Shown: positions 26,695 through 55,385 of the stretch, in pieces
How positions within the stretch are numbered: position 1 is the stretch's first letter
Layout: every line of letters begins with the position of its first letter
Position numbers and translations under genes: made by a program
Notes under the pieces: generated by a model
Seen by the model: only the letters and a program-made list of their open reading frames with translations
Told to the model about the DNA's origin: nothing
The model's database searches: none
Virus record (IMG/VR): IMGVR_UViG_3300031774_000001
DNA length: 64,000 nt
From: a virus
Strand: one strand, 5' to 3'

Positions 26695-26950
26695 AAAACC
26701 TATCGCAATAAAAGACTTAAAATATATTAAGTCAATGGCACCATTAAAAGAATTATTAGATGGTGAATCATTAAATTATCCAATAGAAGTAAAAGAGCAC
26801 ATTGTATCAGAAGTACCTAGATACGGTGTAATGGGCATACCCTATATAGAAAAAGAATATAGTGTGTGGAGAGGCAGTCAGCGAGTGCAGGCAGCTATTA
26901 AATTAGGTTATACACATATTGAAGGAGTGATAATAAATGAAAGAACATAA
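26651..26950 (+). CDS. Small ParB/Srx-like domain protein
   Basis: VWRGSQRVQAAIKLGYTHIEG resembles the ParB-N GxxR...A...LG motif. Confidence 0.45.
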   Translation: MKMKLLTANQKVKNKKPIAIKDLKYIKSMAPLKELLDGESLNYPIEVKEHIVSEVPRYGVMGIPYIEKEYSVWRGSQRVQAAIKLGYTHIEGVIINERT

Positions 26951-54102: not shown

Positions 54103-54392
54103 TAAAACAAAAAACAAAAGACGTTATAAAAATCTTGGAAGATAATAAACTTACTAATATATATTCACCTGAAGACCAAATAAAAATGCAATTAAATAAA
54201 AAGGTTGAAACATTAGAATCTCAAAAAGAAGAATTAGCACTTGGTATGAAAGAGTCTAGACACCAGGAATATGTTAGAAAAGAAATGAACAAAATTAGAG
54301 CTGAAGGTTGGCAAGAGAATAGTGTATCTGATACACATAAAATTATTAAAGAAGCGGAAAGGAGGGTAAAAGAACGTGGCAATAACAGTTGA
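54099..54392 (+). CDS. Hypothetical coiled-coil protein (ATGA-coupled start 54099)
   Basis: ORF track 54090-54392. Confidence 0.55.
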   Translation: MIKQKTKDVIKILEDNKLTNIYSPEDQIKMQLNKKVETLESQKEELALGMKESRHQEYVRKEMNKIRAEGWQENSVSDTHKIIKEAERRVKERGNNS

Positions 54393-54579
54393 AGTAAGAC
54401 ACGGTAATGTAGAGAAAGCTATGAGAGTACTTAAAAAGAAAGTACTTAAAGCTGGTATATTAAGAGAATATAGAGAAAAGCAATACTACAGAAAACCATC
54501 TGAAATTAAAAGAGAAAAGAAGAAACAAGGTATAAAGAATTATAAAAAGCAACAGAAGCTAAGAGAATTAAGAATGTAG
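54376..54579 (+). CDS. rpsU: Ribosomal protein bS21
   Basis: V-x-V...NVEKAMRVLKKK...G...E...YY-x-KPS-x-x-KR; SD GGAGG, GTG start. Confidence 0.93.
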   Translation: MAITVEVRHGNVEKAMRVLKKKVLKAGILREYREKQYYRKPSEIKREKKKQGIKNYKKQQKLRELRM

Positions 54580-54584
54580 AATTA

Positions 54585-54836
54585 CACGCCTGTGCTTGAA
54601 TAAATATATTATACCAGGCAATTCATAAGTCCTGGGGCGTGGAAGGGTGCCAGTCCTACATATTTTAGATATGAAAACTGGTAGTAGTTTGAGGTCTACT
54701 ATAACAAAACCTCAATGAATTGTAAGTTTTGTAGCAGTTTGGGGAGACTCTAAAAGCTATAGAAGGTCACACTAACGTGGACACTACGATAGATATTTTG
54801 ATGGATTCATACTATTAAAAATAAATCCATCGGCGC
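54585..54836 (+). ncRNA. Candidate structured ncRNA with two pseudoknots (family not identified)
   Basis: At least seven complementary segments in a non-coding, locally GC-richer region (see finding). Confidence 0.55.
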
Positions 54837-54838
54837 TA

Positions 54839-54866
54839 CTTGTATATTGTAGGAAACTACATATAT
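54839..54866 (+). promoter_or_regulatory. Possible RpoH (sigma32)-type promoter for hsp20
   Basis: CTTG-N17-CATATAT versus the alphaproteobacterial consensus CTTG-N17/18-CYTATNT. Confidence 0.45.
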
Positions 54867-54874
54867 AAGTAGTA

Positions 54875-54938
54875 GTGAGTTGCCATTAAGGGACTCATAT
54901 AATTAAAATAACTTTGCTTAATAAAGGAGGTTTATATG
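54875..54938 (+). promoter_or_regulatory. ROSE-like RNA thermometer in the hsp20 leader
   Basis: AACTTT[G]CTT pairs with SD AAGGAGGTT, with a bulged G in UUGCU; upstream hairpin GTGAGT/ACTCAT. Confidence 0.55.
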
Positions 54939-55385
54939 ACCAATAAAGCATTATCTATTTTTAACAGATTAAGACCAGTATCAGTAGGATTTGATTCTAT
55001 CTTTGACCATTTCGGTTCAATGTGGGATGACGATTTTATTAATGATATACAACCGTCTTATCCACCATACAATATAGTTAAGTCTGGTAAGAACACTTAC
55101 GATATTGAAGTTGCATTAGCAGGATTCAATAAAAAAGACATTAACGTTGAGGTTGAGAACGGTATGCTTACCATTGAAACTAAGCAGTCAGAAGACGACA
55201 AAAAAGCTGACGTAGATGGTAAAGTATTACATAAAGGTATATCTAAAAGATACTTCAAAAGGTCTTTCACAATCGCTAATGATGTAAAAGTCAAAGGTGC
55301 AGAATTGAAAGATGGTCTTTTAAAGGTTTCTATGGAGAAGATTGTTCCAGAAGAAATGAAGTTAAAAACAATAGACGTTAAGTAA
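54936..55385 (+). CDS. hsp20: Small heat-shock protein Hsp20 (IbpA-like)
   Basis: YPPYNIVK, IEVALAGF, LHKGIS-x-R-x-F-x-R-x-F, A-x-LKDGLL. Confidence 0.95.
   Translation: MTNKALSIFNRLRPVSVGFDSIFDHFGSMWDDDFINDIQPSYPPYNIVKSGKNTYDIEVALAGFNKKDINVEVENGMLTIETKQSEDDKKADVDGKVLHKGISKRYFKRSFTIANDVKVKGAELKDGLLKVSMEKIVPEEMKLKTIDVK

Follow-up and report, generated by a model that had tools for sequence, protein, structure and literature searches.

What occupies the longest non-coding stretch of an otherwise densely coding phage genome? The window (the whole stretch of viral DNA analyzed here, 64,000 nucleotides of IMG/VR record IMGVR_UViG_3300031774_000001) is that of a T4-like pelagimyophage, and its nearest GenBank records are the Pelagibacter phages Mosig EXVC030M and HTVC008M. 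The hosts of pelagimyophages belong to SAR11, the most abundant bacterial group of the sea. To our knowledge, almost nothing has been established about their gene regulation. The + strand of the window carries 78 of 79 crude gene calls, and about 95% of the window is coding. The gene order around the locus is cobS, small ORFs, rpsU, a 356-nt spacer, hsp20, a 63-aa ORF, peroxiredoxin, gp45 and gp44. The spacer (54580-54935) is the longest non-coding stretch of the window and lies between two genes:

54376-54579, + strand: rpsU, the upstream neighbor, an ORF for the phage ribosomal protein bS21, with S21 homologues in 80 viral loci
54936-55385, + strand: hsp20, the downstream neighbor, an ORF for a small heat-shock protein whose homologue is annotated Hsp20 in Mosig and HTVC008M

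A preliminary description of this DNA had read the spacer as a non-coding gap in a tightly packed genome, full of complementary segments. Every segment that it quoted is present where it was placed, and the gap contains no ORF of 30 aa or more. A 12-codon frame from the ATG at 54715 was considered as a small ORF and rejected, as it is deleted or altered in relatives. The + strand of the spacer folds far better than its shuffles (z = -4.78; none of 100 shuffles equaled it). The folding score of the - strand is similar, so folding energy by itself cannot choose the strand. The second-longest non-coding stretch of the window measures 242 nt (26695-26936).

Searches with Hsp20 and S21 yielded 160 viral loci with 90 distinct S21-hsp20 spacers, whose lengths range from 211 to 1785 nt. 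In BLAST comparisons the spacer is a mosaic: approximately the first 67 nt and the last 75 nt are widely common to relatives, and the middle is present only in close relatives and is otherwise replaced. The helices in the middle of the spacer (H3, H4, H5 and H7) were judged on 14 close relatives. Covariation in rpsU-hsp20 homologues had been suggested as a check of the proposed structure; compensatory changes were found in the homologues for P1, P2, H3, H4, H5 and H7.

The first part of the spacer forms a clamp helix (P1) and a hairpin (P2):

54582-54590, + strand: 5' strand of P1, pairing with 54636-54644 (9 bp, with one A.G mismatch in the window)
54636-54644, + strand: 3' strand of P1 (GGCGUGGAA), with compensatory changes
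54614-54635, + strand: P2 hairpin, 54614-18/54631-35 plus C54619-G54629, with the loop AAUUCAUAA at 54620-28 and a bulged U54630

In this layout (54580-54648), P1 encloses a one-sided internal loop that holds an ATAAATA box, and P2 follows the box directly. The layout was given independently by most of 71 single-sequence folds. In a seed of 30 sequences, 93.6% of the cells were paired, compared with 35-48% when the partner was slid. The covariance model built from this seed found exactly one match per locus, on the gene strand every time. Among 73 distinct sequences, 13 of the 15 pairs of P1 and P2 were changed on both sides and 93.9% were paired (42-49% when slid); this larger alignment was fitted to the model and favors the structure, and the independent folds and the seed count are concordant with it. 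Both-side changes affect eight of the nine P1 pairs in this set. P2 is 100% paired with compensatory changes, including replacement of the loop-closing C-G pair by U-A. The CCAGG/CCTGG hairpin (P2) and the CACGCC/GGCGTG stem (P1) of the preliminary description are therefore retained, the latter extended to 54582-90/54636-44.

P2 is the best-conserved part of the entire element. Across relatives, its loop reads AAUUCRUAA with a bulged A or U and is nearly invariant as YCRUAA. P1 is rich in U.G and G.U pairs, which on the opposite strand would be A.C mismatches, and the matches occur on the + strand only; the + strand is therefore taken to be the folded strand. The fold, the covariation in relatives and the single-strand matches together bear out the idea of a real, conserved, structured RNA on this strand. 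Two complete IMG/VR virus genomes and Mosig carry the P1/P2 element a single time each, and HTVC008M carries it once in partial form, as the box and P2. A resemblance of P2 to the 3' region of 16S rRNA was also considered; it is not conserved across lineages, and mimicry of this region was rejected. In HTVC008M-type phages (L002:2872-2900 and L075:2853-2885), P2 is followed by a second hairpin with the loop CCUCUCGUAAAG or CCUCUCGUAAAU. The word UCGUAA from the loop of P2 recurs in it, which may point to a protein-binding site present more than once.

The middle of the spacer contains a pseudoknot:

54682-54715, + strand: H-type pseudoknot; stem 1 (H4) 54682-87/54696-701, loop 1 U54688, stem 2 54689-95/54709-15, loop 3 UAACAAA at 54702-08

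TGAGGT/ACCTCA had been called a classic H-type pseudoknot, and this call is upheld by covariation across clades. The two words are invariant among the 14 close relatives, in which the TAGTAG/CTACTA stem (H4, 54682-87/54696-701) keeps its pairing through compensatory changes. Other clades swap UGAGGU/ACCUCA for GGUGGU/ACCACC, GGUCGU/ACGACC, GGUGAU/AUCACC or UGAUGGU/ACCAUCA. A set of 20 distinct sequences drawn from several clades shows full (100%) pairing of stem 2; five of its seven pairs, and four of the five in stem 1, are changed on both sides. The slid controls were 35-47% paired, except for 70% at a slide of +3. The hairpin-plus-downstream pairing recurs in different letters in the Mosig clade, about 105 nt past the S21 stop. 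The topology is crossing, as in an H-type pseudoknot, with both stems kept by compensatory changes, and the loop lengths are also of this type: loop 1 has 1-2 nt, and loop 3 has 5-12 nt, mostly A (AACAAA, UAAAA, GAACAAA). Strong pseudoknot candidates were found within 150 nt after P2 in 79 of 156 distinct stretches and in 2 of 156 shuffles. An anti-Shine-Dalgarno switch, in which ACCUC (54710-14) pairs with either UGAGGU or the hsp20 Shine-Dalgarno sequence, was excluded because stem 2 varies (ACCACC, ACGACC, AUCACC) while the Shine-Dalgarno sequence stays GGAGG.

The preliminary description had gone further and proposed a double pseudoknot, in which the P2 loop CAATTCAT pairs with a segment at the end of stem 2:

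54715-54722, + strand: ATGAATTG, the proposed partner of the P2 loop; not supported

This part of the proposal did not survive. The P2 loop is universal, whereas its partner is confined to the sub-lineage of the window; among close relatives, ATGAATTG is deleted in L097 and mismatched in L083-L085. Over 164 loci, the mean best complement was 6.82 for the real P2 loop and 6.93 for shuffled loops, and complements of at least 8 nt to the P2 loop were present at 47 loci against about 45 expected. Pairing of CAATTCAT with 54715-22 as a second pseudoknot was thus at chance level and was rejected.

In the lineage of the window, further hairpins surround the pseudoknot, and a promoter region and a short leader separate them from hsp20:

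54650-54681, + strand: H3, lineage-specific hairpin, 54650-54/54677-81 and 54659-63/54669-73, with four both-side pair changes in 14 close relatives
54727-54764, + strand: H5, lineage-specific hairpin, outer stem 54727-35/54756-64 and inner stem 54738-44/54748-54, with five both-side pair changes
54798-54833, + strand: H7, terminal hairpin, core 54800-07/54824-31, 100% paired, with both-side changes in five of eight pairs
54836-54872, + strand: hsp20-proximal promoter region in a 37-nt inverted repeat (CTTGTA ... TATATAAG) with -35- and -10-like words, outside the RNA module
54876-54935, + strand: short hsp20 leader with a hairpin (54876-80/54893-97), UUUGCUU and the Shine-Dalgarno sequence GGAGG (54927-31)

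The three hairpins had all been noticed before from their complementarity (H3 as CCAGT/ACTGG enclosing CATAT/ATATG, H5 as 54727-35/54756-64 with an inner hairpin, and H7 as 54800-07/54824-31), and each gains compensatory changes. The L083-L087 group has a different sequence at the position of H5. Conservation of the RNA module stops at H7. The region at 54836-54872 is mostly invariant, and its departures disrupt pairing, which suggests that it is under sequence constraint and not structural constraint. At the equivalent position, L171 has TTGACA-18-TATAAT. All relatives keep the short hsp20 leader, in which one pair covaries; its words UUUGCUU and AAGGAGG (54916-54932) never differ and offer no variation by which to judge their pairing. 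Since a separate promoter follows the module in the lineage of the window, hsp20 does not need the long leader there. Two leaders are thus probable for hsp20 in this lineage: the proximal promoter would yield the short one, and the module would be part of the long one.

Immediately before P2 lies a candidate promoter:

54599-54606, + strand: AATAAATA box, a T4-type late-promoter word with 7 of 8 matches to TATAAATA

The + strand of the window has 27 copies of ATAAATA and the - strand has none; 17 of the copies fall within the 5% of the window that is non-coding. TATAAATA also has a strong strand bias in four related genomes. Because of this bias in the window and the four relatives, ATAAATA/TATAAATA was taken as the late-promoter word of these phages, and the counts in the window make AATAAATA at 54599-606 a credible example of it. 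As in T4-type late promoters, the box is a TATAAATA word on the coding strand, of a kind enriched before genes. Transcription is predicted to start at about 54612-54613, 6-7 nt past the box, which would place P2 at the 5' end of the transcript. The P2 motif was compared in 144 distinct contexts; in 139 an A/T box stands before it at a fixed distance, as ATAAATA in 62 and as TATATA in 77. In 19 of the TATATA contexts there is a TTGAxx -35 word at sigma-70 spacing, within the hairpin that ends the upstream gene. Both the 27:0 strand bias and the fixed box in these contexts speak for the earlier suggestion of a late-promoter-like box just before the first hairpin. However, the TATATATA lineage has no -35 word, and its box differs from the canonical late word seen elsewhere in the same genome; this lineage is a point against a promoter-leader model. 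TGTGCTT was considered as a MotA box and rejected, its distance to any -10 element being too short in the window; we know of no MotA from pelagimyophages. Late promoters could not be predicted in pelagimyophages in one genomic survey (PMC7029224). The strand bias of ATAAATA provides a usable late-promoter map for these phages.

The exact P2-loop word is present in at least 119 IMG/VR contigs. Among the matches listed, hsp20 lies within 2.3 kb downstream of P2 in 55 of 59 loci, and S21 lies within 800 nt upstream of it in 50 of 65 loci. Two other arrangements are instructive. In 15 compact loci among the matches listed, the order is cobS, a promoter (TTGACx-17-TATATA), P2, the pseudoknot, a short hairpin, UUGCUU/Shine-Dalgarno and hsp20. 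In these loci no S21 lies upstream, only 122-157 nt separate P2 from the hsp20 start codon, and the short hsp20 leader comes directly after the pseudoknot. By their sequence, the core of the element is the hsp20 5' UTR in the compact loci. In four loci among the matches listed, the order is S21, an ORF, TATAAATA, P2, further hairpins, a 94-aa ORF and gp45, without hsp20. Moreover, about 1.1 kb of ORFs separate the module from hsp20 in the Mosig clade. From this gap and the four loci without hsp20 it follows that the element is not simply a regulator of hsp20.

The conserved core is thus an A/T promoter box followed by P2 and the pseudoknot, and it is neither S21-specific nor strictly hsp20-specific. 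The preliminary description had placed the RNA between rpsU and hsp20; it is not peculiar to this pair, as the core also occurs without an adjacent S21 and before other genes without hsp20. It lies directly after the promoter and heads a unit that runs toward gp45 and gp44. To this core the lineage of the window adds P1, H3, H5, H7 and the second, hsp20-proximal promoter. A repeated regulatory cassette was rejected, as the element is single copy per genome. The promoter-early stem-loop cassettes (PeSL) of T4-type phages are found as many dispersed copies; the element had a single copy in the genomes checked.

No match was found in the whole window with Rfam 15 at the gathering threshold. At E <=10, the region 54400-55000 gave a single chance match of 21 nt (E = 1). 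Rfam families were likewise absent from the homologous spacers of 20 relatives, from the Mosig region and from one compact leader, in agreement with the preliminary description, which could assign no family and had proposed an Rfam search. ARAGORN detected no tRNA or tmRNA in the window, and the tmRNA models of Rfam also gave none. The pseudoknot riboswitches (preQ1, SAM-II, SAM-V and others in Rfam), whose models include conserved ligand-contact nucleotides, had no match at E <=10. Stem 2 and the pseudoknot loops vary freely except for an A-rich composition. The preliminary description had listed a ribozyme, a riboswitch-like element and a ribosome- or bS21-binding RNA as candidate functions; none of the results favors a ribozyme, a riboswitch or bS21 binding in particular. 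We found no description of this RNA in the literature. It represents a new family within a familiar type of RNA, the structured phage leader, and combines a hairpin with an H-type pseudoknot.

The structure, conservation, single copy, strand and promoter linkage of the element can all be read from the sequences. We tentatively propose, as a reading about which we are almost evenly divided, that it is a conserved, promoter-proximal leader RNA of T4-like pelagimyophages that acts in cis and is bound by a protein or by RNA polymerase. According to this proposal, the RNA would be made both from the ATAAATA box, with P2 at its 5' end, and by read-through from rpsU. In the read-through transcripts, P1 would clamp the box and P2 and still allow P2 to fold. 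In line with such a clamp, P1 was found only where S21 is directly upstream, and not in the compact loci, the HTVC008M type or the L114 type, in which an ORF lies between S21 and P2. As a cis-acting recognition site, P2 and the pseudoknot would be bound by the protein or the polymerase, and binding would decide what becomes of the transcript that runs into hsp20 and the gp45-gp44 replication genes: how stable it is, whether it is read through, or whether the long-leader mRNA is used. The leader of T4 gene 32 mRNA is a precedent. It too comes from a T4-type phage and has, close to its 5' end, an H-type pseudoknot with a short first loop; there a protein recognizes the pseudoknot and so controls the message that follows. 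However, the two share no sequence similarity, and the element described here lies in an hsp20/gp45 cluster, has a conserved hairpin with an invariant loop before the pseudoknot, and has a binding partner that is a proposal.

It is possible, but rather unlikely, that the element is instead a stand-alone ncRNA that acts in trans, extending from the box to H7 (about 220 nt in the window, about 390 nt in the Mosig clade), with a target in the host or the phage, possibly the ribosome in conjunction with bS21. Its own promoter box, the new promoter after H7, and its size and modular build, which resemble those of large phage RNAs, are in line with this reading. So is the position at which conservation ends, right after H7 whichever gene follows; in the Mosig clade, conservation extends over about 390 nt past S21 regardless of whether hsp20 or other ORFs come next, and a homologous GGUAGUUU..AAACUACC hairpin ends the conserved block. 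On the other hand, H7 has no U tail, and no terminator-like site was found after H7. In addition, the same core runs into hsp20 as a 5' UTR in compact relatives, and P1 uses sequence upstream of the box and cannot form in a transcript started there. An association with S21 might also be taken in its favor, since the element was present in all 83 S21-bearing loci examined. However, S21 is reported as core to pelagimyophages (PMC7029224), so that this association is confounded with phylogeny, and 15 loci among the matches listed have no adjacent S21.

RNA thermometers classically control small heat-shock genes, and in E. coli IbpA binds its own leader. The module could be the upstream domain of a ROSE-like heat-shock leader, which would tune hsp20 translation to temperature or bind Hsp20; we regard this as unlikely. 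The usual downstream gene is hsp20, and in the compact loci P2, the pseudoknot, the hairpin and UUGCUU/Shine-Dalgarno form a single 122-157-nt hsp20 5' UTR. As in ROSE thermometers, this is a multi-hairpin 5' leader before an hsp20/ibpA-type gene. ROSE has U(U/C)GCU opposite the Shine-Dalgarno sequence with a bulged G in the last hairpin; the UUGCUU of the hsp20-proximal segment may face the Shine-Dalgarno sequence in a similar way. However, ROSE elements contain neither a pseudoknot nor a P2-type loop, and neither ROSE nor any other thermometer model matched at E <=10 (54400-55000 and one compact leader for ROSE). The free variation of stem 2 means that ACCUC is not a conserved anti-Shine-Dalgarno sequence. 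The module is also separable from hsp20 by a promoter or by genes: in the window a promoter lies between it and the hsp20 ribosome-binding site, and elsewhere it is kept where hsp20 is 1.1 kb away or absent.

A role as the structured 3' UTR of rpsU mRNA, serving as exonuclease protection, as an RNase III-type processing site or as a feedback binding site for bS21, is decidedly improbable. In its favor, the rpsU stop codon lies 2 nt before the start of P1, and P1 can form only in rpsU read-through transcripts because its 5' strand is upstream of the promoter box. No terminator was found that would part rpsU from the element, and P1 stacked on P2 would make a long irregular helix. However, the core (box, P2 and pseudoknot) exists without an upstream S21 and is preceded by an intervening ORF in other loci, and simple end protection leaves the invariant P2 loop and the pseudoknot unexplained. 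Pseudoknotted mRNA elements are also found beside ribosomal protein genes in the leaders of S15 (rpsO) and of the S4 alpha operon (a double pseudoknot). Those leaders, however, lie upstream of the gene that they regulate and overlap its ribosome-binding site, whereas the present element lies downstream of rpsU and is also found without an adjacent rpsU.

Although the element includes promoter words, its spacer is a mosaic between lineages and T4-type phages are known to shuffle promoter/stem-loop cassettes, it is very improbable that only DNA-level signals (promoters, terminator-promoter cassettes or recombination hot spots) without a functional RNA fold are present, as P1, P2, the pseudoknot, H3, H5 and H7 show compensatory double changes, the G.U pairs work on one strand only, and the element is single copy, unlike repeated cassettes.

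A more far-reaching reading can also be considered, in which P2 and the pseudoknot would reprogram a core machine, either by put/EAR-like read-through into the replication genes or as a partner of bS21 on host ribosomes. This would be a long shot. HK022 put and Bacillus EAR are likewise compact structured RNAs (two hairpins or pseudoknotted) just past the promoter at the head of a long operon, with one or two copies per genome and conserved loop nucleotides. The likeness is one of layout; there is no similarity of sequence or model, and no downstream terminators were identified. If polymerase or ribosome reprogramming were true, the element would be without precedent in T4-like marine phages, and its significance would extend well beyond the group. 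For the leader in general, the motif is backed by covariation and can become a model in RNA family libraries, and the two cultured phages Mosig and HTVC008M offer a defined experimental target.

The element also bears on annotation. Two small ORFs of Mosig that are annotated as hypothetical proteins, Mosig_00015 (L001:1557-1676) and Mosig_00014 (L001:1689-1805), overlie the conserved structured RNA. Their frames contain stops and frameshifts in relatives, and judging from this they are probably not genes; the gene annotation can be corrected accordingly.

Inheritance of the element together with a bacterial rpsU was also considered and rejected. When the model was run on 80 rpsU loci taken from genomes (a set that did not include SAR11 genomes), only two contigs matched. 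These are L171 (NZEU01000035.1, labeled as a Porticoccaceae MAG) and L170 (NYSS01000132.1, labeled as a Planctomycetota MAG), which match both the S21 query and P1/P2. With its order of S21, element, hsp20 and gp45, L171 looks like a contig of a T4-like phage that was binned into a bacterial MAG.

Other RNA genes and elements were encountered in the neighborhood of the S21-hsp20 region. In several related phages, tRNA genes lie near it, at L002:2212-2282, L125:1286-1356, L146:2910-2980, L107:5607-5677 and L110:4206-4276. A contig of a related pelagimyophage carries a glutamine riboswitch downstream of hsp20 (L124:1168-1218, + strand; Rfam RF01739, 67 bits, E = 1.5e-12).
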